A DNA stretch of 64,000 nt from an uncultured Candidatus Bathyarchaeia archaeon (lineage in GTDB: Archaea > Thermoproteota > Bathyarchaeia > RBG-16-48-13 > CAYPFQ01): positions 7,793 to 71,792 of the forward strand of contig CAYYPV010000015.1 of assembly GCA_964473665.1 (NCBI GenBank), read 5' to 3'. This document shows positions 9,801-47,751 of the stretch, piece by piece; position 1 is the stretch's first letter; each line of letters begins with the position of its first letter. The translations under genes were made by a program, and so were the position numbers. The notes beneath the pieces are model-generated. The model was not told where the DNA came from and did no database searches. It saw nothing but the letters and a program-made list of their open reading frames with translations.

Positions 9801-10539
9801 CATGCTTTCCAGTTCTCGTGAAGACATATTTTCCCAAATCTTTTCCGTCATAATGATAAATCCCCGGATGCTCCCACCACTGAAATCTATCCATAAAAAT
9901 TCTGTCGCCTGCAGTAGTCTCTCTCCTATTAATATGCTGACTCATTTCGTAAAGCGTGCTATGCAATTGTTCTCTAGTGGTTATCGCCCCGGCATCGTAA
10001 AGTTCACGCGGTGTCGTCTTAAACGCTAAACAGACGGCTTCAACATCGTCAACATCAAGTTTTCCTTTCCCCGCCTTTAAGTTGAAGTTCTCAACAATCT
10101 GCCGAGTAATGCTCTTGCCCTCCATCTTCTTTTCTTCGATGTAACATTCGCGGAGAGTTTTGTTCATCTTTGATTTGACTAGTCTCTCGAGACCTTCCAT
10201 TCTCTCCTTTAGAGTTAAACTTCTGGCGCCGCCGAACGGAACAACTCTGTCAAGCTGCCTGTACACGTTTAGGTATTCCTCAGTGTCCTCGCCGTATTTT
10301 TCTCCAGCCGTGAGAAATTCGCATCTAATTAGCCCATCTCCGCCTTCGCCCCAAACACCGTAATCCTTAGGCTTATCGTCCTTCGCCTCCTCCTGTGCGG
10401 TTATGTGATTTAGGTGTGGGCGTTCGTAGACTTCTCCGCGTTGCCGACGTTCCTTGATCTCTCTAAGTTCTCTCTGCCTCTCACTCTCCTTCGGTCGGCC
10501 TGCCGAGCCTTCTCCTTCGCTTAAATTCTCATCAACCAA
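6817..10539 (-). CDS. Very large (1240 aa) hypothetical protein with no recognisable catalytic motif; weak tandem LAGLIDADG-like motifs at the C-terminus
   Basis: Uninterrupted 3.7-kb ORF with a charged/coiled-coil middle region and no P-loop. C-terminal ...FHVEVDGG... and ...SAGLCGFIDAKGYV... are about 90 aa apart. Slightly higher GC than neighbouring genes. Confidence 0.7.
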   Translation of the reverse strand: MVDENLSEGEGSAGRPKESERQRELREIKERRQRGEVYERPHLNHITAQEEAKDDKPKDYGVWGEGGDGLIRCEFLTAGEKYGEDTEEYLNVYRQLDRVVPFGGARSLTLKERMEGLERLVKSKMNKTLRECYIEEKKMEGKSITRQIVENFNLKAGKGKLDVDDVEAVCLAFKTTPRELYDAGAITTREQLHSTLYEMSQHINRRETTAGDRIFMDRFQWWEHPGIYHYDGKDLGKYVFTRTGKHAEDLVKTNEERKIVKTVLKSRSANSETLKWFCDRVGLAPTDLETQKIFDKCENLPIEGSRDKKGIWREGFRKIADCVKNKGIFVSRQFPDGESRLYYLTRDVDSACEFSEALKHHKVDFTSYSHGDMNVVRCNKPLQSRRVYSLMQRAYGYHLRESKFSHTPAPEAEFVNLKLHDVTDVLPLVNDELESKSIKEGETVPINRLGMSDLISVFINQEEGNIALSKRLVDEFGYGCPRPMYLHKRNSRIYSVYGFGFEEINDVAGMGDAPVIGKGIYREPEVSLSSRLSGIKDKIFRRKVEAAGSDRRREEAAEDAANLKVEIDEAEVKSGADVAVEKFYEKNPAAREAVQMNLEKREEDEEKLEVNRQANQLFDEVKKEKGRMSLDDCGKLVEFCGQQGFDLNMVKRGLSYQKNVESLSFMKKNRSALERLTVKAHRVEEDADVKRKADMIMQNVKDAHGSMTMLEVLILAKTCRREGIDVQEIDGQASYYDNKVKLREHFMVTKKTFEVSELDTVRMQNEWLAEENAQKENELTALKSRNKPYENTEKVEKESPNYFKMVQENLERSYDSAETPKERKKISTEKEVKHRTEEKQVQAEAVNFSKANNAKVKGAIESKYASRMIPYNALVKNPLRFGDGIITVKGDGVYVSKRIIEISNKEISKLYGDMQNWVLDGKTFLPDSPEKMTDESFTKFNVMLQAFIGEGNFSVADMGKPVNLTPEQVKEMIVDEKLRMKVEKKGNDPLHDRLGHIREGDAFEDAYLQFFSYAFHVEVDGGKVKVSTRVYRPEHLEVVRELLEGKSYSFEVKPVEQQNNYGGNNYFNVATVLMDSSYSLFRDKPQRIDDRMSDECFSAGLCGFIDAKGYVKAIVRNDKVVPEVSVKSEHSFLLNQIAIRLDKQMDVKSKVLSEGYAYRLIVDGADAEKLCSKLTGLRNIQNVKWRDRILSKDLSKESVITINREYSEGIESYLADVKYRYEALQRGETSIEPRREDKLH

Positions 10540-10825
10540 ACCCTACATCCCTCTTCTCGTTTTTGCGTCTACATTTTTCAGGAACTTCAACGACCTTCAG
10601 TAAAAGTTACATAACGGAACTTCAATCAGAAATGGAGCAAGTTAACATTTTATTCTCACCTTCGCCTAACTCATCAAGTTACATACCACTTGATAATCGT
10701 AAAGCCCACTGTAATTCAAAGTATCACCTGAGCAAACTGTTTAAGCTTTGTGAAGTAGGGGGGACGAAATGATTTCAAATGTATCTAATAGAAAGAGAGT
10801 ATTAATGCGGTAATCTTTTAAAAGA

Positions 10826-11275
10826 ATGAAAATTTATTTCACACGTATGGCTAAAGGATTTGTTGCAAAAGCTTCAATTTCGGTAAATGCTCCAATTGCT
10901 AGGGTATGGGAGTCCTTAGTTAATCCGGGAATAATTAAGCAGTATATGTTTGGAACGGATGTGGTTTCGGACTGGCAGGAGGGTGGCTCAATTGTTTGGA
11001 GGGGTGAGTGGCAGGGAAAGAAGTACGAGGATAAGGGTGTAATTCTACATCTTAAGCCTATGCGTTTGATTCAATATAGTCACTTCAGTCCGCTTTCGGG
11101 GCTTCCTGACAGGCCTGAGAATTATCACTCTGTAACAATTGTGCTGTCAGAAAAAGGAGATTCCACTCTTATTTCGTTATCTCAAGACAATAATAATACT
11201 GAAGAAGCAAAGAAGCATTCTGAACAAAATTGGGCACTAATGCTTGAGAGTTTAAAGGAGTTATTAGAAAAGTGA
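10826..11275 (+). CDS. SRPBCC/Aha1-domain protein (paralogous family to 2523-2936)
   Basis: Aha1-like fold motifs (IARVWESLVNP...GGSIVWRGEWQGK). Confidence 0.55.
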   Translation: MKIYFTRMAKGFVAKASISVNAPIARVWESLVNPGIIKQYMFGTDVVSDWQEGGSIVWRGEWQGKKYEDKGVILHLKPMRLIQYSHFSPLSGLPDRPENYHSVTIVLSEKGDSTLISLSQDNNNTEEAKKHSEQNWALMLESLKELLEK

Positions 11276-11440
11276 ATCTTATGAGGTTGAAAGAAATCGC
11301 AAAGCCGACATGTTCGTAATGAGAACGTTAGCCTATAAAGATAAAAACAAGAGTTAGAAATGCTTAAAGTCAGAAACTATAAAAAAGGTTCTTTCTAACT
11401 AAGTTTTCCAAGAAATCTATGCAAGAAAGGATGCAGTATC

Positions 11441-13558
11441 ATGAAAGGTGAAAAATCTACACTCATCGTAGCGGAAAAGCCTGATGCAGCTTTAAGGATT
11501 GCGGAAGCTTTGGATGATAAAGGTAAACCGAAAAAGAAGTTGGAGAAAAAAGTTCCCTTCTTTGAAGCGGAAAGGGATGGTGAAAAAATTGTTGTTGTTC
11601 CAGCGTTGGGTCATCTTTATACAGTAACTCAGGAGATGGGTAGGCGTAATTTTTACCCGGTTTTCAATTATAAGTGGGCACCGAGGCATGTTGCTGAAAA
11701 GGGTGCAAAACAAGTTGAGAAATGGATCGGGGTCATCGCGGATTTGACTAATAACATAGATGACTTTGTAAATGCTTGTGATTATGATATTGAAGGCAGT
11801 TTAATCGGCTATATGATTTTGAAATATGCGTGTAATAATAGTGAAGGTAAATCTAAGCGCATGAAATATTCAACTTTAATGAAACGGGAACTTGAACAAG
11901 CTTATCAAAATCTTATGCCGCATTTAGATTTTTCTTTAGTTGAGGCGGGACGTGCACGGCATGAAGTTGATTGGCTTTATGGAGTAAACCTGTCTCGTGC
12001 ATTAACAATAGCTGCTGCTAATTGGAGTAAATGGTACAGCACGTTAAGCACTGGAAGGGTTCAGGGTCCTACGCTTAGATTTTTGGTCGATCGGGAAAAA
12101 GAAATCCAAAGCTATGTGCCGATTCCATACTGGAGTATAAAGACGATTGTCGAAATTAATGGATCGCCGTACGAAGTTGAGTTTGAAAAAGAGAAAATTG
12201 ACGTAAAAAGAGAGGCGGACGCGGTTGTTAAAAAATGCGCTGGGAAAAATGGCGTAATAAAGGATATTAGCCTTAAGGAATTTAGACAGATGCCCCCAAT
12301 ACCGTTCGACATTGGAGGATTGCAGGCTGAAGCATACCGGTTATTCGGATTTACGCCGAGTCGAACTTTAAGGATTGCTGAGAGACTTTATCTTGAGGCT
12401 ATGATTTCATATCCAAGAACCAGCAGCCAGAAACTTCCTCCAATAATAAATTATAATGAAATACTAACATCACTACACAAAAGAGAAGAGTATAGAAAAC
12501 TTGCTTCAGAATTGCTTGCCAAAAAAACTTTACAGCCTAACGAGGGAAAGAAGGAGGACCCAGCTCATCCAGCGGTTTACCCCACTGGCCTTATAGCAGA
12601 GCGGCCGTTAGACGAGAGTGAACATAAGTTATATGATTTGATTGTTAGGCGATTTATGGCTGTTTTTGGAGAACCTGCGTTAAAACAAACAATGAATGTT
12701 GCTATTGATGTTGCTGGTTACTTGTTTCACCTTTACGGTAGGAGAGTCCTGGAAAGCGGCTGGTTGAAATTCTATGAACAGCTTGTTAAGAGTGATGAAG
12801 TTTTATTGCCGCCTCTTGAAGTTGGCCAAAAGATTCCGTTAAAAGAAGTGGCTAGTGAGGATAAGTTTGTGAATCCGCCGCCGCGTTACAACCCAAGTAG
12901 TCTACTTAAGTTAATGGAGGAGCAGTCAATTGGAACTAAAGCTACTCGCTCTGAAATCATTGATACTTTGTATGATCGGAACTACATTCAAGATGAAAGA
13001 ATGTTGGTTACGGATCTTGGTTTTTACGTTATTGATACTCTAGAGAGGTATTGCCCAGATGTAGTTTCTGTCGAGCTTACTCGTGAGCTTGAAGAGAGGA
13101 TGGAAAAAATAGAGGTTGGAAAAGAGTTTCGTGATGTTGTGTTAGACGACGCTATTACTAGGTTAAAGCCTATTCTTGGTGAATTTAAGCTGAAGGAGAA
13201 GGAGATAGGTAAAGAGTTAAGTGAAGCTATTAGAAAGGCGCGTGCTCAAGAGAGGACTGTTGGACCCTGCCCTATATGTGGAACAGGAAATTTGATCATC
13301 TTGCGTTCGCGAAAAACTGGAAAACAGTTCATCGGTTGCTCTAATTATTTCAATAAACTGTGTAAAGCAGGATTTCCATTACCGCAAAGAGCTACTGTGA
13401 AACCTCTAAGGAGAAATTGTTCGTCATGCCAGTGGCCTATGGTTCATGTCAGAATCTTTGGGGGACGCCGACCTTGGAATTTATGTTTTAATCCTAACTG
13501 TCCATCAAGGAAGGAGCGAGCAGCTAATGCAGTGCAAAATATGCAATCGAAACAGTGA
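11441..13558 (+). CDS. topA: DNA topoisomerase I (type IA) with C-terminal zinc ribbons
   Basis: Toprim N-terminus (LIVAEKPDAA), topo IA core motifs, C-terminal CxxC zinc ribbons. 705 aa. Confidence 0.9.
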   Translation: MKGEKSTLIVAEKPDAALRIAEALDDKGKPKKKLEKKVPFFEAERDGEKIVVVPALGHLYTVTQEMGRRNFYPVFNYKWAPRHVAEKGAKQVEKWIGVIADLTNNIDDFVNACDYDIEGSLIGYMILKYACNNSEGKSKRMKYSTLMKRELEQAYQNLMPHLDFSLVEAGRARHEVDWLYGVNLSRALTIAAANWSKWYSTLSTGRVQGPTLRFLVDREKEIQSYVPIPYWSIKTIVEINGSPYEVEFEKEKIDVKREADAVVKKCAGKNGVIKDISLKEFRQMPPIPFDIGGLQAEAYRLFGFTPSRTLRIAERLYLEAMISYPRTSSQKLPPIINYNEILTSLHKREEYRKLASELLAKKTLQPNEGKKEDPAHPAVYPTGLIAERPLDESEHKLYDLIVRRFMAVFGEPALKQTMNVAIDVAGYLFHLYGRRVLESGWLKFYEQLVKSDEVLLPPLEVGQKIPLKEVASEDKFVNPPPRYNPSSLLKLMEEQSIGTKATRSEIIDTLYDRNYIQDERMLVTDLGFYVIDTLERYCPDVVSVELTRELEERMEKIEVGKEFRDVVLDDAITRLKPILGEFKLKEKEIGKELSEAIRKARAQERTVGPCPICGTGNLIILRSRKTGKQFIGCSNYFNKLCKAGFPLPQRATVKPLRRNCSSCQWPMVHVRIFGGRRPWNLCFNPNCPSRKERAANAVQNMQSKQ

Positions 13559-13748
13559 CGATAATGAATTTTGTGGATTACATAAGAAAGCGCATGAGAA
13601 TCTTATCCGTGGATATGAGAGCTGGGTAAATGCGATGGAGATTCCTTGGGAGAATTATTTGAGTGATGTTGCGAAAAACCCAAGTACTGGCCTGTGGGTA
13701 AAGGAGGTAGCGGAGTATCTCCAAAAGAAGGAGACGAGCCATAAATGA
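13527..13748 (+). CDS. Small zinc-ribbon protein (internal ATG of ORF 13446-13748)
   Basis: MQCKICNRNSDDNEFCGLH. Overlaps the topA 3' end by about 30 nt in another frame. Confidence 0.4.
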   Translation: MQCKICNRNSDDNEFCGLHKKAHENLIRGYESWVNAMEIPWENYLSDVAKNPSTGLWVKEVAEYLQKKETSHK

Positions 13749-14179
13749 ATTTCGCGGATTGGATCAGGCGTAGAGAAATTTATAGAAAATTAAAGCTAAT
13801 CCGTCTTCCACATGTACGTGGAGTAAAGGCGCCTACAATTATCGTTTTTTTGGCTTTAGTTGTGATAGCAATCTTCTTTTTGAGCGGTGGAATTTATAAC
13901 TATGTTGAATTTACTGCGGGCATGCTTTTCTTTGTTACGCAGTATGGTAACCAATCGGTATTTTATTACCCAAAAGACATTTCTGCACAACTTCTTGGAG
14001 AAAGCTTGCTGGCGATGTTATTTTACGGGGTTGGAATGGTCGGGTGTTATGTTGCTTTTTTGAGCACAAGATATGCGTATAGACGTAGACAAGCTTGGAT
14101 TTTGCTCTCTTTAGGAATAACTATGATAGTGATGGCTTACTTCGGCTTTCAAATACTTTTTAATCTGAAGATGGGCTAG
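13745..14179 (+). CDS. Integral membrane protein (3-4 TM helices), unknown function
   Basis: Hydrophobic segments. ATGA overlap with the upstream small ORF. Confidence 0.5.
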   Translation: MNFADWIRRREIYRKLKLIRLPHVRGVKAPTIIVFLALVVIAIFFLSGGIYNYVEFTAGMLFFVTQYGNQSVFYYPKDISAQLLGESLLAMLFYGVGMVGCYVAFLSTRYAYRRRQAWILLSLGITMIVMAYFGFQILFNLKMG

Positions 14180-14180
14180 A

Positions 14181-14690
14181 TTACCAAGGTTTATCCTTTA
14201 TTTTCAGTAGAAATGCGAGAATGTTGGTTAATACGTGAAGAAATGGCGTAATAATAACTATAAAAATAACTGTTTCAATTTTTGGCGACATTATTATTGA
14301 TGCAAAAAGAAAGGCACCGACTACAAAGTCAAGTTGATCAAGGGGTGGGAGGGGGGCGCCAGGGGCAATGTTTAGTCGTCTTTTGATAAAAGCCCCAGTT
14401 AAATCGCCGATTAATGCACCTAATGTTAGAAGTAGGCCGATTGTCAAAGAAGTGCCTGCTGTTGGTAGTGATATTATTTTTTGAATAATAGTTACAATAA
14501 GTCCAACTATAATACCTGAAACGAAGCCGCGTATTGTTTTATGGGCTCCAAATATTGGTTTTCCGTCAATAAAGTTACGATTGAAGTCAATAGGCTTTTT
14601 TCCTCTAAAGACAGTTGGCGCTGCATTTGCAAAGTATGCTGGCAAAATGTAGTAGATAGCATTTGCAAAGGCGAGTAGACTTAGGTCCAC
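14181..14690 (-). CDS. carS: CDP-archaeol synthase (CarS, DUF46 family)
   Basis: N-terminal AIYYILPAYFANAAP plus KTIRGF motif, polytopic, 169 aa. Characteristic of archaeal CarS. Confidence 0.75.
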   Translation of the reverse strand: MDLSLLAFANAIYYILPAYFANAAPTVFRGKKPIDFNRNFIDGKPIFGAHKTIRGFVSGIIVGLIVTIIQKIISLPTAGTSLTIGLLLTLGALIGDLTGAFIKRRLNIAPGAPLPPLDQLDFVVGAFLFASIIMSPKIETVIFIVIITPFLHVLTNILAFLLKIKDKPW

Positions 14691-14716
14691 TTTTTACACC
14701 TTAGATTTTATGTTTA

Positions 14717-15424
14717 TTATCCCAGATCATTAATTCCAGTTTCAGTTAATTTGAAGTAACATCGAGCGCGCGGATGATTCATTCCTAAAAATTTTTCGAG
14801 TGCAGCTTCCCGAACATCTGTTCTTTGAGTTTTTTCCAAGTGCACAATTACTTTCGACCAGAATTTAAGAACACGTTCAGCTACAGGTTCAATATCTGGC
14901 TTTTGATCTTTACCAAAGACATTGTAAACCTGGCTAGTCAGTATTACTGCAATTTTTTTTTCACCGACGATTTGAGCAAGATAGGCTAGTTGACGATTTA
15001 ACTCTCTATTCAATGCAAATGTTTCTTCCATTGAACCTAATTCAACTCGGTATAAAGATGAAATCGTATCGATAATAACCACAACAACATTTGGTGTAAA
15101 ATAATTATCAAGATTTTCGATTAGATGGATTTGTTCCTTAAAATTTTTGGGAGAAAAAATTACAATATTTGGTGAGATTTTTTCGGTATATTGATGCGCT
15201 ATTTGAGACAGCCGTATTGAAGTGAACGCATTATCTGAATCAATGAATATCGCCTTAAATCCCTTTTTTGCGACGTTTACTGCGCATTGAATTGCAATTG
15301 TTGTTTTCCCAGTGTCTGCCTCGCCATATATCAGTGAAATATTTCCAGTTGGAAAGCCTGTTCTTAGCATTCGATCAAATGAATAGCAACCAGTAGATAT
15401 AGCTTCGATTGATTGGGCGCTCAA
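14717..15424 (-). CDS. RecA-superfamily ATPase, RadB/KaiC-like
   Basis: Walker A GEADTGKTTIA, FIDSDNAF, Walker B-like VVVIIDTISSLY. 235 aa. Confidence 0.65.
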   Translation of the reverse strand: MSAQSIEAISTGCYSFDRMLRTGFPTGNISLIYGEADTGKTTIAIQCAVNVAKKGFKAIFIDSDNAFTSIRLSQIAHQYTEKISPNIVIFSPKNFKEQIHLIENLDNYFTPNVVVVIIDTISSLYRVELGSMEETFALNRELNRQLAYLAQIVGEKKIAVILTSQVYNVFGKDQKPDIEPVAERVLKFWSKVIVHLEKTQRTDVREAALEKFLGMNHPRARCYFKLTETGINDLG

Positions 15425-15490
15425 TTAACATCGACCAAAAAAAGCCAATATACGTTCCTTGATTAATAGTTTCACTACGATTCTAAGAGA

Positions 15491-16120
15491 TTGTTATCTA
15501 TGAGTGCACAGATTGCTGTTGCCACTTTGTCTGGGAAAGCGTATTATGCTATTGTTAACGAGTTAAAGAAAAGGAAGATCCCATTTCTCAGTTTAAAGCC
15601 TGGCGATACCGTTCCGGTGCACGTTAAGGTAATTATTACAACGGCGGCTGAAGAGAGTGAAATAAAATATCCACGTATTCTAACTTGTGATGCAAATAAG
15701 AATGTGGAAAAAATTATTGATAAGGCTCTGCAAATTATCTCTGGAAAAGCTGCTTACAAAAGGGTGGTTATAGGAATCGACCCAGGAAAAACATTTGGAT
15801 TTGCGCTGCTGGCTGATGAAAGAGTTTTGAAAATGTCAAGTTACACGACTGTTCCAGATACGGTTGTTGGTGTACTAGAGGCTTTAGAAGATTTACATGC
15901 TACAAAAAAGATAGTTAGAGTGGGAGATGGCGCGGATCCTTATAGGCTTAGATTGATACAGGCACTTAGTAAAAAGTTGCCAACGGAGGTATCGTTGGAA
16001 ACTGTAAGTGAGAAAGAGACAACCAGAATTGCAAAAGGGTTTATGCCCCGCCGTAAAACGTTACTGGATGCGGCTTCAGCAATCGGTATAGCCTCAAGAA
16101 GTGGACGTAGAATTAGGTAG
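15491..16120 (+). CDS. RNase H-fold nuclease, putative (YqgF/RuvC-like)
   Basis: VIGIDPGKTFGFALL motif typical of RuvC/YqgF-like resolvase fold. Confidence 0.4.
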   Translation: MLSMSAQIAVATLSGKAYYAIVNELKKRKIPFLSLKPGDTVPVHVKVIITTAAEESEIKYPRILTCDANKNVEKIIDKALQIISGKAAYKRVVIGIDPGKTFGFALLADERVLKMSSYTTVPDTVVGVLEALEDLHATKKIVRVGDGADPYRLRLIQALSKKLPTEVSLETVSEKETTRIAKGFMPRRKTLLDAASAIGIASRSGRRIR

Positions 16121-16121
16121 C

Positions 16122-16826
16122 CTACTGACCATAGTAAAGTCTTTCAGCAAGTATTGAAGGCAAACCGGCAGCAAGTATTTCGTCAGCAGTTTTGTCTATA
16201 TTGTATTTAACTCGATAATGTTCGAAATGAAGAATTCCATTTTTTTCTGAAATTATTGCGTAGCTTGCGCCGGGATCCAGGTCTCTAGGTTGTCCGACTC
16301 CGCCCGGATTGAGAATGTATCTGCCTCTAAGTTTAGATTTAAATAACATTGGAATGTGCGTATGTCCTAAAAGTAGTACATTTGAACTTGTCCTCTTAAG
16401 AAGTTCAATAAGAAAATTCTCGTCAGTATTTGGAAAAATGTAATCGTTGAGGGGGTCTAATGGGCTTCCATGAACAAGGAGGAATGTATTTTTATCGACT
16501 CGAAAATTGGCGGTTAACGGGAGTTTATTTAAGAATTTTTTATTCTCATCTGATAGATGTTTATGCGTCCAATGCACAGCAACTGCAGCGTATGGATTAA
16601 GGCCTGACGTATTATCGGTTAGTGAAGCATAGTCATGGTTTCCCATGACTGAAATCATTTTTAGTTCATCAGCTGTTTTGATTACTTCGTTTGGTTTTGC
16701 GCCGTAACCTACGAAATCGCCCAGGGACAGTATTTTATCTACCTTGCCTATTGCAGTAATAACTGCGTTGAATGCTTCAAGATTAGCGTGTATGTCTGAA
16801 ATCACAGCTATTTTCAATTTATTCAC
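16122..16826 (-). CDS. Calcineurin-like metallophosphoesterase
   Basis: DIHAN...GDFVGYG...GNHD...GHTH motifs. Confidence 0.8.
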   Translation of the reverse strand: MNKLKIAVISDIHANLEAFNAVITAIGKVDKILSLGDFVGYGAKPNEVIKTADELKMISVMGNHDYASLTDNTSGLNPYAAVAVHWTHKHLSDENKKFLNKLPLTANFRVDKNTFLLVHGSPLDPLNDYIFPNTDENFLIELLKRTSSNVLLLGHTHIPMLFKSKLRGRYILNPGGVGQPRDLDPGASYAIISEKNGILHFEHYRVKYNIDKTADEILAAGLPSILAERLYYGQ

Positions 16827-17059
16827 GCATCATTTAAACATGAGTTGGATAACTTGGGTTTTTTGTAAATCAAAAAATACTATGAACTATTTGCGCGCTC
16901 TGTATCTTTATAGGTTATAGTTTTCAGCTTCGAATCGTGAGGGTATTTCGTTATTTGTCGAATTTCCTTTATCCAAGTTATTAGCGTAGTAAACTTTGGA
17001 AAAAACTAGATTTATGTATGCATTAGTGAATTTAAGGCATTAAACAGTGGGTATGCCGC

Positions 17060-17416
17060 TTGAAACGCACTAAAATATACATCGAAGAAGTTAAAGAGGG
17101 GGATAAAAAGTTCTCCTTAACTCTATTTGAAGTTGAAAACGCTACGTTAGCCTTTTTTAATGAGGAGGATGTTATGCGGATGGGCACCCTTTCCGTAGCA
17201 ATGCCTTCAATTGAAGGTGAGCCGCCGATCATATCTTCAATACTATTAGGGGACAAAAATACTGCAACAACGCGTATACTTGCGGAAATGTTAGCTAAAT
17301 CGTATGGAAAGATGGCGCTAGTTTCCACCTCTATTAGGACAGTTGATGAGGCTGAAGCTGGACTGGTTTTAATGAAACTAACCAAAAAATTTCTTGTAAA
17401 GAGAGAAAAAAAATGA
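17060..17416 (+). CDS. Hypothetical 118-aa protein, translationally coupled (ATGA) to ubiX
   Basis: ORF ends 4 nt into the ubiX start. No recognisable motif. Confidence 0.45.
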   Translation: MKRTKIYIEEVKEGDKKFSLTLFEVENATLAFFNEEDVMRMGTLSVAMPSIEGEPPIISSILLGDKNTATTRILAEMLAKSYGKMALVSTSIRTVDEAEAGLVLMKLTKKFLVKREKK

Positions 17417-17973
17417 GGGTCGTCGTAGGAATAACGGGCGCTAGTGGAATCGTATACGGTGTACGTTTACTTGAGGTATTAAAGGCCAAAGGTATTGAAA
17501 CACATCTTGTACTCTCAAACAATGCTGAGAAGATTGCAAAAAATGAACTTGATTTAACGCGAAAACAAATAGAGCGTCTTGCTAACTACTCCTATGGGCT
17601 TGATGATTTGGAGTCCCCTATTTCAAGCGGATCTTTCCTAGTAGATGCGGTTATAATTGTTCCTTGCAGCATGAAAACATTGGCTGCAATAGCTAACGGT
17701 TACGCTGATAACCTGATCAGTAGATCTGCTGACTGTGCATTGAAGGAGGGAAAACCCCTAATTTTAGTTATCAGGGAAACCCCGCTTAACGTAATACATT
17801 TAAGAAATCTTATGACAGCTGCGGAGTGTGGTGCAATAATATTGCCGGCTATGCCTGCATTTTACCATAAGCCTAAGTCGGTTAATGATGTAGTAGATTT
17901 TGTGGTTGGGAAAATTTTGGATAGAGTTGGAATTAAACATAATTTATACAAAAGGTGGAAGGACGTTGCCTGA
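17413..17973 (+). CDS. ubiX: Flavin prenyltransferase UbiX (prenyl-FMN synthase)
   Basis: MRVVVGITGASG... flavoprotein motif. 186 aa. Confidence 0.9.
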   Translation: MRVVVGITGASGIVYGVRLLEVLKAKGIETHLVLSNNAEKIAKNELDLTRKQIERLANYSYGLDDLESPISSGSFLVDAVIIVPCSMKTLAAIANGYADNLISRSADCALKEGKPLILVIRETPLNVIHLRNLMTAAECGAIILPAMPAFYHKPKSVNDVVDFVVGKILDRVGIKHNLYKRWKDVA

Positions 17974-19318
17974 TCTAAGAAGTTTTCTAAAAGAATTGGA
18001 GCAGACGAGAGACATCATTAAAATAAAGGATCCAGTTTCAATTAGGTTTGAAGCGGCAGCTATTATGAAGGGGTTCGACTGTGGGCCCGCCATTTTTTTT
18101 GAGAAGATAAAGGAAAGCGATACTCCTATTGTTGCCAACATTTGTGGAACAAGAGCAAGGATTTGCAGATCATTAGGAGTTGGCGGAGATGGACTTTATC
18201 AGAAGATTATGGATTCGCCGATGCATCCGCTTCGTCCAGTTGTTGTTAAGGACTGTCCAGTAAAAGAGGTTGTTGAGGAACCTAAGTTAACTAAGATGCC
18301 GATTTTATCTCACTATGAAAAAGATGCTGGACCGTACATAACTTCTGCAGCCGTTTCAGCCAGAAGCCCGGATGGGAAGATAGAAAATGTCTCAATCCAT
18401 AGACTACTTGTATTGGATGACAATCATCTGGCGATTAGGATTGTACCTAGACATCTCTATAAATTGTATCAGATGTCGAAGAAGTGTGGGAAACCATTAG
18501 ATGTTGCAATTGCTATCGGATTACACCCGACTGTCTCTTTGGCTGCTGCTTTACAGGCACCGTTTGGCGTAAGCGAATATGATCTTGCAAACACGCTCCA
18601 AAATGGAGGATTAAAGCTCACAAAATGTGAACATGTAAATGCCTATGCGCCTGCTGACGCTGAGATTGTCCTTGAAGGACGAATTAGTGAGGAGGATGAA
18701 GCTGTTGAAGGCCCATTCACCGATTTGTTAGGAGTGTATGATATTGAAAGGAAACAGCCTATAGTTGAAGTTGTTGGAGTCATGCGGCGAAATAGGTACA
18801 TATATCAAGCGCTTTTGCCTGCTGGTTCGGAACATATGTTGCTAATGGGGCTTGGAAGAGAGGTTAAGATTTGGGATGCTGTAAGGAATGTTACACCTTT
18901 TGTTAAAGGCGTTAATCTAACTCCTGGCGGATGTGGTTGGCTTCACGCCGTTATTTCGATTGAGAAGCAGAATGAGGGTGATGGAAAAAACGCCTTGATG
19001 GCGGCTTTTGCAGCTCACACAAGCTTGAAACATGCTGTAGTTGTTGATACTGATATTGATGTTTTCAATCCTTATGAGGTCGAGTGGGCGATTGCGACCC
19101 GTTTTCACGGTGATGAAGACTTACTGGTCATTAGGAATGTTCGTGGATCCAGCATGGATCCAGCAAGTGATCAGGAGCATGAGTTAATAACGAAAATAGG
19201 TGTTGATGCTACAAGGCCCTTGTATAAGTCTTCTAAGAATTTTGAGAGGGCTAGAGTCCTTGAAAACAAGAATGTTAAGAGGATTTTGAAGAAAAACGCC
19301 CGAAAGTTGGTTTCATAG
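17966..19318 (+). CDS. UbiD-family decarboxylase, probably anhydromevalonate-phosphate decarboxylase (AMPD); TTG start inferred
   Basis: UbiD-family conservation throughout (N-terminal LRSFLKELE...). ORF is open from 17900, which would overlap ubiX. Confidence 0.8.
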   Translation: MPDLRSFLKELEQTRDIIKIKDPVSIRFEAAAIMKGFDCGPAIFFEKIKESDTPIVANICGTRARICRSLGVGGDGLYQKIMDSPMHPLRPVVVKDCPVKEVVEEPKLTKMPILSHYEKDAGPYITSAAVSARSPDGKIENVSIHRLLVLDDNHLAIRIVPRHLYKLYQMSKKCGKPLDVAIAIGLHPTVSLAAALQAPFGVSEYDLANTLQNGGLKLTKCEHVNAYAPADAEIVLEGRISEEDEAVEGPFTDLLGVYDIERKQPIVEVVGVMRRNRYIYQALLPAGSEHMLLMGLGREVKIWDAVRNVTPFVKGVNLTPGGCGWLHAVISIEKQNEGDGKNALMAAFAAHTSLKHAVVVDTDIDVFNPYEVEWAIATRFHGDEDLLVIRNVRGSSMDPASDQEHELITKIGVDATRPLYKSSKNFERARVLENKNVKRILKKNARKLVS

Positions 19319-20515
19319 TTGTTTTTGACTACTGAAGAGGAAAAGATGTTAAGGGGTGATTATGGATCAGCTGTAGCTTTGGCTATGAAGCTCCTTGTAA
19401 CCTTGGGCGATGTCTTTGAAGCTAAGAAGATGATCAAGGTTGGAAGCGCACAGGTTTCAGGCATTTCATATCAAAATATAGGTGATCCTGGGCTTAGATT
19501 TATTGAAGATTTATCGAAGATGAAGGCAAAGGCTAAAGTTTATTCTTCATTGAACCCTGCCGGGATGGATCTTAAAAAATGGAAAGAGATGGGGATAAAT
19601 GAAGTATTTGCTGAAAAACAGTTGCGAATAATAAACGCGTTTAATAGAATGAGGATAGAGCCAACCTGCACATGTACACCTTATCTTATTGGCAATAGAC
19701 CAGGTATTGGTGAACATGTCGCGTGGGCAGAGTCGTCAGCAGTTGTTTTTGCTAATTCGGTGCTAGGTGCAAGAACAAATAGGGAAGGGGGACCGTCTGC
19801 ACTCGCCAGCGCACTAACAGGGCTTACTCCATTTTATGGTTATCATCTTGACGGTGAAAGGAAGCCGACGCATATCATCAGAGTTGAAGCTGATGTAGGG
19901 GATGAGTTGGGGTTTAGTATCCTTGGATACGCTGTTGGGCGGATGCTGGGGCAGGGGGTCCCTTTCTTTGAGGGATTAGGAACACCTGACCAAGAAGAGC
20001 TGAAAGCGTTAGGAGCGGGTCTGGCGGCGTCAGGATCTATTGCAATTTATCACATTGCAAATATAACGCCGGAAAGCCGTTTGATGACGCATAACGATGT
20101 AGGCAGCTGTGAAAAAATCACGGTCGAAAATAGAGATCTTAGTGAAACCCTTAGTCGACTGTCAGTTGAAGATGATTTCAACTTTGTATGTATCGGCTGC
20201 CCTCACTGCAGCCTTTCAGAAATTAAGAGGGCGGCAGATATGCTTTCCGGTAAAAAGGTGAGAAAGCGCTTCTGGATTTTCACTTCAAAAATGATTCATA
20301 AAGAGGCGGTTAAACGTGGGTTCTCTAAGGCGATTGAAAAAGCCGGAGCGGAGATTATTGACGATACATGTATGGTTGTCTCTCCGCTTAATGAACTTGG
20401 AATTAATGGAGTAGTGATTAACTCCTGTAAGGCGGCACATTATGTCCCGTCGACCTGTCGATTGAAAGTGAATTTACGGAACTTTGAAGATTGCATTAAT
20501 GAGGCTATCAAATGA
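19319..20515 (+). CDS. Aconitase X-like (DUF521) large subunit, probably phosphomevalonate dehydratase
   Basis: AcnX-family N-terminus (MLRGDYGSAVALAMKLL...). Starts immediately after the ubiD stop. Confidence 0.75.
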   Translation: MFLTTEEEKMLRGDYGSAVALAMKLLVTLGDVFEAKKMIKVGSAQVSGISYQNIGDPGLRFIEDLSKMKAKAKVYSSLNPAGMDLKKWKEMGINEVFAEKQLRIINAFNRMRIEPTCTCTPYLIGNRPGIGEHVAWAESSAVVFANSVLGARTNREGGPSALASALTGLTPFYGYHLDGERKPTHIIRVEADVGDELGFSILGYAVGRMLGQGVPFFEGLGTPDQEELKALGAGLAASGSIAIYHIANITPESRLMTHNDVGSCEKITVENRDLSETLSRLSVEDDFNFVCIGCPHCSLSEIKRAADMLSGKKVRKRFWIFTSKMIHKEAVKRGFSKAIEKAGAEIIDDTCMVVSPLNELGINGVVINSCKAAHYVPSTCRLKVNLRNFEDCINEAIK

Positions 20516-20922
20516 TTAGACTTAAAGGACGAGGAGTTGTTGGTGGTGTGGCGGAAGGCGTGGCAGTGGTGTCTAAGGAACCTATTTCATTTTTCGGAGG
20601 AGTTAATCCTAAAACTGGAAAGATAATTGAGAGGGGGCATGCCCTTGAAGGTGTTTGTGTAGCTGGAAAGGTATTGATTTTTCCGCATGGTAAGGGAAGT
20701 ACTGTAGGCTCTTACATTCTTTATGCGATGGCCAAGAATAAAGTGGCACCAGCTGCCGTAATTAACGTTATTACTGAGCCGATAATCGTTGTAGGATGCT
20801 GTTTGGCAGATATTCCGCTTGTTGATAAGCTGGATAAGAACCCCGTCCAGAGCATAAAGAATGGAGACACTGTCAGGGTTTTAGCTTACAAGGGCCTAGT
20901 TGAAGTTATGGACAGGTGTTAG
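20512..20922 (+). CDS. Aconitase X swivel-domain small subunit (DUF126), PMDh small subunit
   Basis: 136 aa, ATGA overlap with the large subunit. Confidence 0.7.
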   Translation: MIRLKGRGVVGGVAEGVAVVSKEPISFFGGVNPKTGKIIERGHALEGVCVAGKVLIFPHGKGSTVGSYILYAMAKNKVAPAAVINVITEPIIVVGCCLADIPLVDKLDKNPVQSIKNGDTVRVLAYKGLVEVMDRC

Positions 20923-20927
20923 TTGAG

Positions 20928-22232
20928 CTAATAAGAAACTCTTGTTGAATAAGGCTTCTTACCGAAGGTTTCGTCAGCAATTTTTCTAACTTTATCTCTA
21001 TATTGTGATGTTGTATAAACCCTAATGACATCCATGTAGCCTTTTAACGTATCAACAAGATGTGAAACTTCGGAGAGACTCTGCACAGTTTTTGATCCGT
21101 CAGGCTGCTTGTGGAAAATTGGAATATCAACTTGTCGCCTCGACATTGGATAATAAGGGACGGAGGGCACAGTGGGTACGTCTATAACTAAATAGTCTGG
21201 ATCTACACCCGTTTTTTCGCTCATTTCCTTCGCTATTTGATTTCGAATTTCTTCTCTGCTTAATATGCTTGTAAAGAATTCATCACGTCTATGAATTATC
21301 ATTTCGTAGGCACATTTGAAAAGTTGTCTATCGTTGAACATTCTTGCTAGATTATAAGCCACTTTTAGTTTTCTATCTTTTTCGTTCTTTAGCGACAACA
21401 ATCCGAGGAGAACACTGGAGTCGTCAAGCTGCAGATAGTCGTCTGGAACTTTAAACCTTGTAAGTCCAAGCTTATCGTTAGCGTACTCCATAGCTCTAAT
21501 CGCCATTATCTCAGCGGCTCTTACGGTACGGTGGAAGTAAACTGCTTTGAACATTTCATATCTGGCAATTATGAAGGCTTCAAGCGCGTAAGAAGCTGCG
21601 ACGTCAATCACTAAAGCGTCGTTTATGACGTCTACGGAATCGATTAGACGATATATGTCAACTTTCCCGTATTCTACCCCAGTGAAATATGAGTCGCGGA
21701 CAAGAAAGTCCATTATGTCCACATCAAATTGACTTGCGATTATTTGGTTCATAAACGGTTTACTTGTTTTTTCTAGAAGACCTACAGATAGTTTAGATAA
21801 TTCCTCAGCCGAGTAGCCATACCTGTTTAATACGTCTTTTACTTCGCTCTCTTTGATAAGCCACTGAGAAACGTCTTCATGCGTCATTTTGCGGTGTTTG
21901 TCTAAAACTTCTTCATATATGTGAGAGAACGGCCCATGACCAATATCGTGAAGAAGCCCAGCAACTCGCATTTTTTGGACTTCGTCCTCTGATATGTAGC
22001 CCATTTGCATGAGACGGTTTGCCAAGATGCCTGCAAGATGCATTACGCCTAATGAGTGGACAAAACGTGAGTGTTCAGCTCCAGGGTAGGATAAATGTGC
22101 TCCAGCAAGTTGCTTCAGTCTTCTTAATCTCTGCAAAGGACGTGAGTCGATTAGTTCCTTTTCTACGTCGGTCATGAATATGTAGCCATGAATAGGATCG
22201 CGGATTTCTCCAACGCGTTTTCTAATTGCCAT
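20928..22232 (-). CDS. HD-domain phosphohydrolase, dGTPase/SAMHD1-like (COG1078)
   Basis: FVHSLGV...HDIGHGPFSH HD motifs. 434 aa. Confidence 0.8.
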   Translation of the reverse strand: MAIRKRVGEIRDPIHGYIFMTDVEKELIDSRPLQRLRRLKQLAGAHLSYPGAEHSRFVHSLGVMHLAGILANRLMQMGYISEDEVQKMRVAGLLHDIGHGPFSHIYEEVLDKHRKMTHEDVSQWLIKESEVKDVLNRYGYSAEELSKLSVGLLEKTSKPFMNQIIASQFDVDIMDFLVRDSYFTGVEYGKVDIYRLIDSVDVINDALVIDVAASYALEAFIIARYEMFKAVYFHRTVRAAEIMAIRAMEYANDKLGLTRFKVPDDYLQLDDSSVLLGLLSLKNEKDRKLKVAYNLARMFNDRQLFKCAYEMIIHRRDEFFTSILSREEIRNQIAKEMSEKTGVDPDYLVIDVPTVPSVPYYPMSRRQVDIPIFHKQPDGSKTVQSLSEVSHLVDTLKGYMDVIRVYTTSQYRDKVRKIADETFGKKPYSTRVSY

Positions 22233-22285
22233 ATTTACTCAGCCTTGCTTAGCATGTTTATCTTGAGTCATGCTTTATTTATACA

Positions 22286-22918
22286 ATGGTAACATTAGAA
22301 GAGACAATAGAAGGCGTGTACGTGAAAAGAGGAATTCTAATAAGCATTGAGGGATGTGATGGGGCGGGTAAAACTACCCATTCTCGCCGTTTAAGAGATA
22401 GTTTAGTGAGATACGGGTTTAATGCGGCTTATACTACAGAACCTAGCTTGAGTAAAGTTGGCAAATTTATAAGGCTGAACGTAAGTAGGGCTAAAAAACA
22501 GATACCGGTTGAGGTTGAGGCGTTACTCTTCGCTGCTGACCGGTTTGAGCATATAAAAACTGTGGTTGAACCAGCTTTACGGCATGGCAAAATTGTGATT
22601 TCAGATCGGTATGTTCACTCTTCACTTGCTTATCAAGGGGCACGAATGGCTAATTTAGATTGGTTAAGGAAAATAAATGTGTTTACGTTAAAACCAGATT
22701 TGGGAATTTATCTTGATGTACCTCCTAAAGTTGGACTGCGTAGAAAGCTAAAAGATAGGACTGTTTTTGAGAATTTCGAACTTCAGCGAAAGGTTCGAAG
22801 AATTTACCTTAAATTTGTTGAAAGAGGCGAATTAACTTTAATTGATGCTACTGGGGATTTAGATAAAGTTGATGCTGATATTTTGAAAGTTGCATTGCGG
22901 TTTTTGAATAAGAAATGA
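22286..22918 (+). CDS. tmk: Thymidylate kinase
   Basis: P-loop GCDGAGKTT, DRY motif. Confidence 0.85.
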   Translation: MVTLEETIEGVYVKRGILISIEGCDGAGKTTHSRRLRDSLVRYGFNAAYTTEPSLSKVGKFIRLNVSRAKKQIPVEVEALLFAADRFEHIKTVVEPALRHGKIVISDRYVHSSLAYQGARMANLDWLRKINVFTLKPDLGIYLDVPPKVGLRRKLKDRTVFENFELQRKVRRIYLKFVERGELTLIDATGDLDKVDADILKVALRFLNKK

Positions 22919-22977
22919 GCGGAAATGCCGTAAGTTGGAAAGTTAATTATCTGTTTATCCCTAACAAGTTTGACTAG

Positions 22978-23688
22978 GTGTTAACTATGTCTAGAATTGA
23001 GACGTTACTCCCATATTTGAAGGAAAAAAAGGAAAATGAACCTACAGTGATTGCCGACAGCCGTGAAGCTGGTTCAGCGCCTAAGGTAATTAAAGGTCTA
23101 GCTGAACTTGGCGCTCAAGTTAAAATAGATGTTCTCCAGAAAGGGGACTATATAATATCTGATCGGTGTGCTATTGAGAGGAAAACTGTAACTGACTTTG
23201 TTCATACTTTAACTAGGCGCTTTTTATTTGAACAACTTTTCACATTAAAGGAGGCATATTTGCAGCCCCTAGTTTTAATCGAAGGCTATATGCCTATTAT
23301 CTACAAGTATAGTAAGATATCGCCCTTTGCAGTTTGGGGAGCTATGTTCGCGTTAGCGAAACAAGGAATTTCGATAGTTCACACGATGAATTCTAAGGAG
23401 ACGGCAGATTTCATCTATACTGCAGCTAAACAAGAGCAAATAGTTGAGAAGAGAGTTCCGATGATACGCCCATTGAAGAAGACTGAAACATTGGCTGAAT
23501 CTCAGTTATTTTTCGTGGCCGGACTCCCGAATATTGGACGTGAAAAGGCGGATGCACTGCTTAGGACATATGAAACGCCTATTGGTGCATTGTCAAAAGT
23601 TGACTGTTGGGCGGATGATGTGGCTGGTCTTGGACCGAAAATTACTGAAAAAGTTAAACAAGTCTTATGCACGCCGTATAAGGCTTAA
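22978..23688 (+). CDS. XPF/ERCC4-type nuclease (short archaeal form, nuclease plus HhH2)
   Basis: ERCC4 motif GDYIISDRCAIERK plus C-terminal HhH. 236 aa. Confidence 0.75.
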   Translation: MLTMSRIETLLPYLKEKKENEPTVIADSREAGSAPKVIKGLAELGAQVKIDVLQKGDYIISDRCAIERKTVTDFVHTLTRRFLFEQLFTLKEAYLQPLVLIEGYMPIIYKYSKISPFAVWGAMFALAKQGISIVHTMNSKETADFIYTAAKQEQIVEKRVPMIRPLKKTETLAESQLFFVAGLPNIGREKADALLRTYETPIGALSKVDCWADDVAGLGPKITEKVKQVLCTPYKA

Positions 23689-23719
23689 GAGATCTGATAT
23701 GTATCCCGTTACAATTTTA

Positions 23720-24058
23720 TTATTTAATCTTTCTTAGTTTCTCGAGAGCCTCGAGCCATGTTGAAAGCAGGTTACCAAGTTTTTGCAGGCGGTCAGGATC
23801 TTTTTCAATTTTTATTTGAGCGATGGTTTCATGGATTTTATTCAGAATAACTTCGTCAATATTTGAAAGAATAATAGTTGTGGATTCCTTCGGAACCTCT
23901 TCCTCACTTTTCACTATGACCACTCGTTTGTTACATTTTGGGCACCAAACGTCTTCGTGAATTTTAAATAGCGGCGAATTGCATTCAGGGCATGACTCCG
24001 AAAGCATTGTGGCTCCTTTTCTCAGATAGTCCGCCATTCTCTTAATGTCCTCGCTCAT
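23720..24058 (-). CDS. UPF0148-family zinc-ribbon protein
   Basis: CPECNSPLF...CPKCN zinc ribbon with the N-terminal ADYLRKGATML pattern. Confidence 0.6.
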   Translation of the reverse strand: MSEDIKRMADYLRKGATMLSESCPECNSPLFKIHEDVWCPKCNKRVVIVKSEEEVPKESTTIILSNIDEVILNKIHETIAQIKIEKDPDRLQKLGNLLSTWLEALEKLRKIK

Positions 24059-24127
24059 GTTGAATTCTTCCTAGAGAAATCTTTTTGTAATAATAGGTAA
24101 TTTGATTATCGCTTAAGGAGACGGCTT

Positions 24128-24409
24128 ATGGCTGCGCGTAAAAAACGGTTGGAAGAATATGAAGAGAGGATTCGTCAAGCCCTCGCAATTCTAGGAAAGG
24201 TCTCTGAGGATACAACTACCCCTAGAAATATTAGGCGTGCAGCGAAAGAAGCTATGGACGCTCTTCAGTTGAAGGGAGTTACTCCAGCCGTTAGAGCTGC
24301 TAACGCTATAAGTATTCTTGACGAAATTTCACAGGACCCGAATATGCCCCCTTACACAAGAGTGGCAATATGGAATGCTGTAAGCATTATCGAGGCAATA
24401 AAAGACTAA
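24128..24409 (+). CDS. UPF0147-family protein
   Basis: 93-aa helical protein, IRRAAKEAMDAL pattern. Confidence 0.55.
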   Translation: MAARKKRLEEYEERIRQALAILGKVSEDTTTPRNIRRAAKEAMDALQLKGVTPAVRAANAISILDEISQDPNMPPYTRVAIWNAVSIIEAIKD

Positions 24410-25212
24410 GTTTTAATTAAAGTACTAATTTTGTTGAATAACTGGTTATTTCCAGCAGCAATGAATGACACCCTTGAGGTTGGAGTAAGGGGTGGATTTA
24501 ATTTACATCCTTCGGGTGTAAGCATTATTCCACCAGATTCTTTTATTATTAAATAAGCTGCAGCTATATCTGTTACTCGAAGTAGTTTTCGTATATCGAC
24601 AAAAGCATTGTATAGCCCGTTAGCAACATAGCATAATTCAAGTGCATTTGCGCCAAAGTGTCGAGGATGCCCCGCTATGTTAAGTAAGGTTGATAAACGC
24701 TGAAGCTGTTCTCTAGGCTCAATTTTGCTGAGATCAACTCCGATAATGGCTTTTTCAACATCTGATACTTGCGCAGGTCTGATTTTTTTCCCATTCTGCT
24801 TAGCGCCTCTTCCCTTTTCAGCTGAAAAAATTACGTTTTTGTAAATGTCCATCACGACGCCGGCTACAACGCCGTTAAGATATGGAGATGTAGAGATAGC
24901 TAAAGATGAGGCGAAGAAGGGGACGGCGTTTACAGCATTAGTTGTACCATCTATTGGATCTGCAACAAGATAAATTGAAGATTCCCTGCCGAATTCTTTA
25001 ACACCCATTTCTTCGCTTACTAATGTGCATGAGATCTTCTTTTTTTCAATAATTTGTATAATGGCTGATTCCGCTACTCTATCTATCTTTTCGGTTAAAT
25101 CTCCGCCCGCGCCTTTGCCAACTATTTTATGCTTACCGAAAAGAGGCATACTGCTAACTCTGACAGAGTTAGCCATTTCGTTTAGAAGCGGTATCCACCC
25201 CATACTTAGCAC
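24406..25212 (-). CDS. Inositol monophosphatase / FBPase family (SuhB-like)
   Basis: VADPIDGTTNA motif. 268 aa. Confidence 0.8.
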   Translation of the reverse strand: MLSMGWIPLLNEMANSVRVSSMPLFGKHKIVGKGAGGDLTEKIDRVAESAIIQIIEKKKISCTLVSEEMGVKEFGRESSIYLVADPIDGTTNAVNAVPFFASSLAISTSPYLNGVVAGVVMDIYKNVIFSAEKGRGAKQNGKKIRPAQVSDVEKAIIGVDLSKIEPREQLQRLSTLLNIAGHPRHFGANALELCYVANGLYNAFVDIRKLLRVTDIAAAYLIIKESGGIMLTPEGCKLNPPLTPTSRVSFIAAGNNQLFNKISTLIKT

Positions 25213-43501: not shown

Positions 43502-43573
43502 AAAATCACACGTGATATTGAAGACTATAAGTGGAGTCACATGTTACATTGGATCTGTCACAGAATAGTGTAA
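43502..43573 (+). pseudogene. Fragment copying the C-terminal 23 codons of hypF (KITRDIEDY..HMLH.I.HRIV*)
   Basis: In-frame nucleotide similarity to hypF 42273-42345, ending in a stop. Confidence 0.5.
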
Positions 43574-47740: not shown

Positions 47741-47751
47741 AGTGATCAGCT

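Follow-up and report, generated by a model that had tools for sequence, protein, structure and literature searches.

A PAC4-family protein encoded ahead of the archaeal mevalonate decarboxylase is a candidate accessory chaperone in Bathyarchaeia

A characterized small chaperone of a UbiD-family decarboxylase is LpdD of Lactobacillus plantarum (PDB 8PO5 and 8PZO), which binds reduced prenylated flavin mononucleotide (prFMNH2) in the LpdB/LpdC gallate decarboxylase system (PMC10865409). Gahloth et al. (2024) described LpdD as a small protein, co-transcribed with the UbiX homolog lpdB, that forms a dimer with the Pba3/4 fold, binds reduced prFMN only, and enables apo-UbiD activation in vivo and in vitro (PMC10865409). 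Its metal site, H35/H61/D63, is strictly conserved, and H35 is required for prFMNH2 binding in vitro; LpdD is seldom encoded beside UbiD genes, and its authors, who do not mention archaea, expect further, unidentified chaperones (PMC10865409). Other small accessory proteins encoded with UbiD/UbiX pairs are the prenylated-flavin maturases PhdC and YclD (PMC13040415), and active VdcCD has been described as including VdcD as an integral component (PMC10865409). Here, we analyzed 64,000 nucleotides of contig CAYYPV010000015.1 from an uncultured Candidatus Bathyarchaeia archaeon (the window), in which an open reading frame (ORF) of 118 residues heads an operon of the archaeal mevalonate pathway. 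We call its product PAC4L. PAC4L belongs to the proteasome assembly chaperone 4 (PAC4) family, has the predicted fold of LpdD, and recurs directly upstream of ubiD. We cautiously favor the view that it is a lineage-restricted accessory chaperone for the prFMN-dependent enzyme of the operon, anhydromevalonate phosphate decarboxylase (AMPD).

The enzymes of the operon compare closely with described archaeal modules. In Methanosarcina mazei, the validated genes for AMPD (MM_1526) and for both phosphomevalonate dehydratase subunits, large and small (PMDh-L, MM_1525; PMDh-S, MM_1524) are adjacent, and the prFMN synthase gene, MM_1871, is located away from them (PMC12547664). TK1249 and TK1248 of Thermococcus kodakarensis are a structurally solved type II AcnX, assigned as mevalonate-5-phosphate dehydratase, with the Fe-S cluster cysteines C110, C283, and C342 (PMC8184944). 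The window holds five co-directional ORFs on the plus strand at 17060 to 20922 (Table 1), all present where an earlier sequence-only reading of this DNA had placed them. UbiX scored 259 bits against TIGR00421 (cut-off, 108.9) and 169 bits against Pfam Flavoprotein. UbiD carries the Pfam domains UbiD_N, UbiD, and UbiD_C (201, 124, and 66 bits) and scored 393 bits against TIGR00148. The AcnX large subunit matched PF04412 with 513 bits, and the small, swivel subunit matched PF01989 with 112 bits and NF003046 with 167 bits. These predicted domain assignments are far beyond chance. The best PDB matches of the large and small AcnX subunits were 7cnr_A (TK1249; E 1e-98) and 7cnr_B (TK1248; E 6.6e-35), and in the alignment all three Fe-S cysteines are kept in the window protein as C119, C294, and the Cys of DDTC. 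UbiD, AcnX-L, and AcnX-S follow one another in the same order as MM_1526, MM_1525, and MM_1524. For UbiD, the nearest solved structure was 6h6v (E 5e-98), which we take to be HmfF of Pelotomaculum thermopropionicum, and the top 120 matches of a homolog search were Bathyarchaeia-like proteins only. Most related loci have type II AcnX genes next to this UbiD gene or close by, and from this genomic context, which we regard as strong, we infer that the UbiD protein is AMPD, the enzyme characterized as APE_2078 in Aeropyrum pernix and as MM_1526 in M. mazei. The AcnX matches, the cysteines, and the gene order bear out the sequence-only reading of the operon as an archaeal mevalonate module: its five genes form an operon for the lower archaeal mevalonate pathway, and the enzymatic operon itself is known biology.

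Two features set the window operon apart from those modules. It shares a heterodimeric type II AcnX with Fe-S cysteines and a UbiX-family prFMN synthase with the modules of Aeropyrum pernix, M. mazei, and T. kodakarensis, and a UbiD-family decarboxylase directly upstream of AcnX with that of M. mazei. However, ubiX lies inside the operon in the window and elsewhere in all three species, and the window operon is led by a fifth, PAC4-like gene, whereas no such gene is mentioned in the mevalonate-pathway papers surveyed.

That fifth gene had been read as encoding a protein of unknown function. The protein is not without a family: PAC4L scored 34.4 bits (E 2.2e-8) against Pfam PF16093, proteasome assembly chaperone 4, whose gathering score is 31. 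The single sequence matched human PAC4 weakly, and a profile of 69 family members matched it with an E value of 3.2e-9. A profile search of 1.84 billion representative proteins gave 106 relatives at E≤1e-3, nearly all of 105 to 130 residues; judged by its relatives, the 118-residue ORF is a real conserved gene. The profile also recovered one insect PAC4, so that the Pfam match works in the reverse direction as well. Asgard proteins from Hodarchaeota, Promethearchaeota, and Candidatus Atabeyarchaeum deiterrae are among the relatives, and the Hodarchaeota protein is named "proteasome assembly chaperone 4 family protein" by NCBI. The family was found in Bathyarchaeia, in relatives of unspecified taxon, and in a few Asgard archaea only.

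An AlphaFold2 model of PAC4L, built from 15 sequences (predicted local distance difference test, 88.4; predicted template modeling score, 0.83), has the PAC3/PAC4-type fold, a six-stranded sheet packed by two helices, and is likewise Pba3/4-like. The top Foldseek matches of the model were human PAC4 and PAC3, yeast Pba3/Pba4, and LpdD. Structure prediction, a check that the sequence-only reading had proposed, thus gave PAC4L the fold of a characterized prFMNH2 chaperone. PAC4L and LpdD share no detectable sequence similarity, and their structural alignments gave 6 to 9% identity. Both are encoded in an operon with a UbiX homolog and tied to a UbiD-family decarboxylase, and in both the conserved residues appear to be placed in loops and not in the core, as judged for PAC4L from predicted secondary-structure positions. 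However, the client of LpdD is a bacterial aromatic acid decarboxylase, whereas that of PAC4L would be an archaeal decarboxylase of an aliphatic substrate in lipid-precursor synthesis. PhdC/YclD and VdcD are also small proteins encoded with UbiD/UbiX that improve formation of active holo-UbiD, but their folds differ from that of PAC4L: PhdC has an HpaC-like flavin-reductase fold and oxidative catalytic activity, and VdcD is an integral subunit.

Genomic neighborhoods sampled from the UbiD side link PAC4L to the decarboxylase. The sample comprised 80 metagenomic loci with the closest UbiD relatives, at 55 to 86% identity (42 clusters at 80% identity and 11 at 70%), and is skewed to one UbiD clade and a few sampling sites. 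A PAC4-like gene lay immediately upstream of ubiD in 73 of the 74 informative loci (73/80 in total); in six loci, the upstream sequence was too short to tell. In locus L171, ubiX lies upstream of ubiD, and there was no PAC4-like ORF in the remaining 722 nt. A 4-nt overlap joins PAC4L to ubiD in 56 of these 73 loci. The AcnX genes vary around the pair, being co-directional in some loci and inverted or missing in others, so that the PAC4L-UbiD pair is the stable unit.

Family members only 27 to 34% identical to the window protein also head PAC4L-UbiD-AcnXL-AcnXS operons, in unrelated surroundings. In L178 to L181, upstream of this unit are a primase, GINS, L44e, S27e, eIF2alpha cluster and STT3; in L177, the upstream gene is that for Hjc. 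Upstream in L086 are XPD and HhH-GPD genes, on a contig that also encodes reverse gyrase, and the short contig of L175 carries the PAC4L-UbiD pair. Several distant members sit on contigs of 1 to 2 kb that give little context. Because it recurs in unrelated contexts, the PAC4L-UbiD pairing appears to be more than one inherited ancestral block. We had also considered that the linkage was merely conserved gene order near Cdc6/PolD, and we downgraded this explanation because the same PAC4L-UbiD-AcnX unit occurs in unrelated contexts. The neighborhood check came out in favor of a factor tied to the prFMN enzyme, as the sequence-only reading had guessed, both in the count upstream of ubiD and in the recurrence.

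Table 1 Features of the mevalonate operon in the window
Feature	Position	Strand	Description
118-residue ORF (PAC4L)	17060..17416	+	PAC4-family protein with predicted LpdD fold; proposed to assist the prFMN-dependent decarboxylase as an accessory chaperone
UbiX flavin prenyltransferase (prFMN synthase)	17413..17973	+	4-nt overlap with the PAC4L stop codon
UbiD-family decarboxylase, inferred AMPD	17966..19318	+	Probable start TTG 17966
Phosphomevalonate dehydratase large subunit (AcnX type II)	19319..20515	+	Pfam AcnX
Phosphomevalonate dehydratase small subunit (AcnX swivel domain)	20512..20922	+	ATGA overlap with large subunit
Intergenic region	16827..17059	.	Between divergent metallophosphoesterase gene (16122-16826, - strand) and operon

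In the window, PAC4L overlaps ubiX. We read the ATGA overlap at this junction directly from the sequence (ATG at 17413 to 17415, TGA at 17414 to 17416), which confirms the overlap that had been noted. The sequence-only reading had gone further and described 4-nt overlaps throughout. This is true of two of the four junctions, the second being the ATGA between the AcnX genes at 20512 to 20515; ubiX and ubiD overlap by 8 nt with the TTG start (ubiX stop codon at 17971 to 17973), and ubiD abuts the AcnX large-subunit gene with 0 nt of overlap (TAG at 19316 to 19318, TTG at 19319). The longest ubiD ORF opens at 17900, and the start that matches homologs is the TTG given in Table 1 (M-P-D-L-R-S-F). 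UbiD relatives open with MDLR or MTDLR straight after the preceding stop codon, and the Pfam UbiD N-terminal domain begins at residue 30 of the long ORF. Because of these homolog N termini and the domain start, this TTG is most likely the start of ubiD. An antisense ORF at 17032 to 17385 is a shadow of the 118-residue ORF.

Neighborhoods sampled from the PAC4L side gave a different picture. We scanned species-representative genomes with a 9-sequence alignment, which samples only members with the motif SS[IV]LLGD[RK]N, and kept 80 distinct loci of 89 confirmed stretches. The proteins are 34 to 51% identical to the window protein, and 79 of the 80 loci are labeled Bathyarchaeia. Locus L014 (CAYGAW010000052.1) is labeled "uncultured Anaerolineales bacterium"; it carries the archaeal block CarS, RadB, DUF460-like, PAC4-like and is probably mis-binned.

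Several results of this sampling weigh against a role of PAC4L tied to UbiD. In only about 17 of the 80 Bathyarchaeia species genomes does ubiD follow, directly or via ubiX: it comes directly after PAC4L in 16 loci, and ubiX comes after PAC4L in the closest relative only. About 60 of the 80 have no UbiD adjoining PAC4L, and the commonest downstream neighbors are a GNAT acetyltransferase (33 loci, mainly of soil lineages), then Sua5 and the thermosome. The contrast with the UbiD-centered figure is probably explained by the clade and site bias of the UbiD sample. At sites without ubiD, PAC4L remains with its upstream neighbors and does not follow ubiD. UbiD-linked and unlinked loci are interspersed in a neighbor-joining tree; therefore, UbiD adjacency was lost several times, with PAC4L keeping its upstream neighbors. 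The three Asgard homologs (Atabeyarchaeum, Hodarchaeota, and Promethearchaeota) have no ubiD or ubiX nearby, and the family was not found in most archaea that use the mevalonate module. Moreover, the M. mazei pathway works in Escherichia coli with AMPD and prFMN synthase alone (PMC12547664). Most PAC4-like genes in species-level genomes are not beside ubiD or ubiX, and PAC4L is not a general component of the pathway, of which the sequence-only reading had suggested it to be an accessory factor.

Some of these loci are of interest in themselves. Directly after the PAC4-like gene, L025 has a 44-codon UbiD remnant (10363 to 10494) and L030 has a UbiD gene split into three frames (10396 to 11710); these look like stages in which UbiD is decaying or being relocated at this site, or else like assembly errors. 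In the soil Bathyarchaeia (L034 to L082), the PAC4-like gene is followed by genes for a GNAT acetyltransferase, Sua5/TsaC, a thermosome subunit, and a ThyA-like protein, and upstream, on the other strand, are genes for an unannotated protein of about 430 residues, prefoldin beta, DUF3194, and a DHH phosphoesterase. This soil neighborhood is rich in protein-folding genes, and peptidyl-prolyl isomerase (PPIase) genes are also among the neighbors in soil lineages.

The Asgard loci bear on a second explanation, that PAC4L is the archaeal ortholog of PAC4, serving the 20S proteasome or another ring or oligomer, and that it stands beside mevalonate genes through inherited order in a slowly rearranging Cdc6/PolD block. 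In Atabeyarchaeum and Hodarchaeota, the gene comes after CarS, RadB, (DUF460-like), and XPD, which is the upstream block of Bathyarchaeia, and the next gene encodes an HD-domain protein or a topoisomerase fragment, not UbiD. The neighbors of the Promethearchaeota copy are unrelated. The block is thus common to Bathyarchaeia and two Asgard groups whose copies are without UbiD, which speaks for inherited order. The genes for the PolD small subunit (DP1) and Cdc6 lie a few kilobases from PAC4L in both the window and the Atabeyarchaeum locus, L083. Therefore, part of the synteny is a conserved block holding replication genes, and inherited gene order contributes part of the linkage, which counts against a functional tie to UbiD. 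Sequence points the same way, toward eukaryotic PAC4 and not LpdD: in addition to the Pfam score above gathering, the profile match to human PAC4 (3e-9), the insect and Asgard relatives, and the NCBI name, a search of all PDB sequences with the family profile at E≤10 found nothing besides PAC4 and did not reach LpdD. The many species genomes in which no UbiD adjoins PAC4L fit as well, and the soil neighbors among them include prefoldin beta, thermosome, and PPIase.

The synteny itself is unusually deep for archaea. The order TopoI, (small membrane protein), CarS, RadB, DUF460-like, [XPD], PAC4-like, and further on genes for an HD-domain protein, a PF06677 protein, and UPF0147, is shared by the window (11441 to 25212) and the Asgard loci L083 and L089 (Atabeyarchaeum and Hodarchaeota). 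In the window, DP1, a convergent Cdc6/Orc1 gene, and, further on, the gene for the PolD large subunit (DP2) lie at 33435 to 36751 and 48589 to 52020; in L083, too, the DP1-Cdc6 pair lies downstream of the PAC4-like gene. The arrangement suggests that the whole region may be close to a replication origin.

Despite this kinship, we regard a proteasome role as unlikely. Queries validated as PF00227 recovered no gene for a proteasome alpha or beta subunit from the window and the loci examined for this (2.27 Mb in total), and none lay within about 10 kb in any of these loci. Therefore, the proteasome reading is weakened. Unlike PAC4/PSMG4 with PAC3 and yeast Pba3-Pba4, PAC4L heads mevalonate/UbiD operons. 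The PAC4L-UbiD(-AcnX) unit recurs outside the CarS-RadB block, and nearly all members of the nearest UbiD clade have PAC4L upstream, in most cases overlapping by 4 nt. The partner of PAC4 is PAC3, but the genome scan returned one PAC4L locus per species genome, and no PAC3-like gene was detected with PAC4L; no 20-kb PAC4L locus held a second family member, a search that a divergent paralog would escape. Archaeal 20S rings are mostly homo-heptameric and self-assembling, which leaves the part that PAC3-PAC4 plays in ordering subunits without an obvious client there (see also PMC3605417).

We compared the conserved residues of 151 nonidentical family members, 92 UbiD linked and 59 unlinked. Sixteen positions are conserved (window numbering): N27, G42, T43, P49, S59, S60, L62, L63, G64, D65, R/K66, N67, R72, E76, K84, and S89. 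Eleven of the 16 are polar, which would exceed the needs of a passive scaffold. Eukaryotic PAC4/PSMG4 shares with PAC4L the motif S-x-LLGD-x-N ... LA-x-x-LA ... K ... VS, but N27, G42, and P49, invariant in archaea, are not kept in insect PAC4. We rejected group-specific residues in UbiD-linked versus unlinked members, since the conserved columns were identical in both. This identity weighs against a UbiD-specific function, as does the finding that no His or Cys is conserved among the 151 members: the H35/H61/D63 metal site of LpdD is not reproduced in PAC4L. Of such a site, only a conserved Asp, D65, lies in the corresponding beta5-helix loop.

The missing His residues, which in LpdD are linked to prFMN, also fit a third explanation, in which PAC4L partners the AMPD oligomer in its structure or assembly and does not bind the cofactor, either as a small noncatalytic subunit, in the manner of VdcD with VdcC, or as a chaperone for oligomer assembly. 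In most lineages, PAC4L is coupled directly to ubiD, with ubiX elsewhere. VdcD is a precedent for such a subunit (PMC10865409), and PAC3/PAC4-fold members work by binding subunits of oligomeric rings (PMC6539346). However, PAC4L separates easily from ubiD in many genomes, M. mazei AMPD is active in E. coli without such a partner, and the sole prokaryotic protein of the fold to have been characterized acts as a cofactor chaperone and not as a subunit (PMC10865409). We think a partner role of this kind quite improbable.

A fourth possibility is that PAC4L functions outside both systems, for example with the divergently transcribed DNA-repair genes (XPD, HhH-GPD glycosylase, and RadB) that are its most widely conserved neighbors across phyla. 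Loci of Bathyarchaeia and Asgard archaea have XPD or HhH-GPD as the immediate upstream neighbor, on the opposite strand. PAC4L, however, has no homology or fold relation to DNA-repair factors, and in L177 to L181 the upstream neighbor changes while UbiD stays. A function outside both systems seems to us very unlikely.

A helper related to UbiD is the reading we retain, on two unrelated lines of evidence: PAC4L is recurrently paired and coupled with ubiD, or with ubiX in the window, and it has a fold whose only characterized prokaryotic member is a prFMNH2 chaperone. It seems unlikely that two proteins of an uncommon fold would occur in UbiX/UbiD operons, one in bacteria and one in archaea, by chance. 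The sequence-only reading had suggested a factor that acts on the prFMN enzyme as a chaperone or in its maturation; the recurrent UbiD neighborhood and the LpdD-like fold support that part of it, and its scope shrinks from the whole pathway to particular lineages. In the pathway as we propose it, the AcnX large and small subunits would dehydrate mevalonate 5-phosphate, and AMPD would use prenylated FMN to decarboxylate the dehydrated product to isopentenyl phosphate. UbiX would supply the cofactor in its reduced form, prFMNH2. The product of the first gene, predicted to be a small beta-sandwich protein of the PAC3/PAC4/Pba3-4/LpdD fold, would work like bacterial LpdD and probably act as a homodimer. 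PAC4L may take up the oxidation-prone prFMNH2 from UbiX, or shield it, and help to load apo-AMPD; alternatively, it may assist in some other way the formation of the active AMPD oligomer. PAC4L would contact UbiX or AMPD, and its translational coupling, to ubiX in the window and to ubiD among relatives, would match its production to that of its client.

Around the operon, several other features of the window can be recorded. The closest relatives of the window are on a 1.25-Mb metagenome contig of the Joint Genome Institute, with 72 to 91% protein identity and the same gene order; the next closest are metagenome-assembled genomes labeled Candidatus Bathyarchaeia. In the closest relatives (L001 to L003), a gene for an XPD-type helicase of about 650 residues lies between the metallophosphoesterase and PAC4-like genes, whereas the window has at this position a spacer of only 233 nt. 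Therefore, the helicase gene was lost or moved in the window lineage. The spacer presumably holds promoters; its A/T-rich stretches at about 25 and 45 nt upstream of the TTG start of PAC4L are TATA-like. A sigma-70 promoter and terminator scan of the window used bacterial models, which are uninformative for an archaeon. The largest gene of the window is an unannotated ORF of 1,240 residues on the minus strand (6817 to 10539), which had no Pfam match at E≤1e-5. A full-length HypF carbamoyltransferase gene for hydrogenase maturation lies at 40075 to 42399, and therefore a [NiFe]-hydrogenase is implied in the source organism. The G+C content falls to 0.32 to 0.35 at 42000 to 48000, versus about 0.40 elsewhere, and long ORFs are scarce between about 42.4 and 47.7 kb; a segment that is RNA-rich, made of repeats, or foreign could account for this.

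Pfam already recognizes the PAC4L family, and NCBI has named one Asgard protein accordingly. In the open-access papers and preprints searched, we found no description of archaeal or Asgard PAC3/PAC4 homologs, and the proteasome literature among them describes, for archaea, PAC1/PAC2 homologs only; nor did this literature describe an archaeal LpdD-like protein or a small accessory gene for AMPD. PAC4-family proteins are now documented in Bathyarchaeia and Asgard archaea, which is relevant to how the eukaryotic machinery for proteasome assembly arose. One scenario, which we hold to be speculative and rather improbable, is that PAC3/PAC4, LpdD, and the PAC4L family form one ancient superfamily with a prokaryotic role in maturation of prFMN-dependent UbiD enzymes, that its archaeal members (Bathyarchaeia/Asgard) first served the mevalonate decarboxylase, and that an Asgard-derived copy was later recruited for assembly of the eukaryotic alpha ring. 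Most archaea obtain their lipid precursors through this pathway, in which AMPD is the prFMN-dependent step. A dedicated helper whose gene accompanies that of AMPD would be a concrete, cloneable candidate for cofactor loading or maturation in strict anaerobes, and PAC4L may be of benefit when the ATP-saving archaeal mevalonate pathway is put to use in heterologous hosts. If the proposed role is true, the concept established with LpdD, chaperone-assisted activation of UbiD, would extend from one bacterial system to archaea, by way of a different sequence family.

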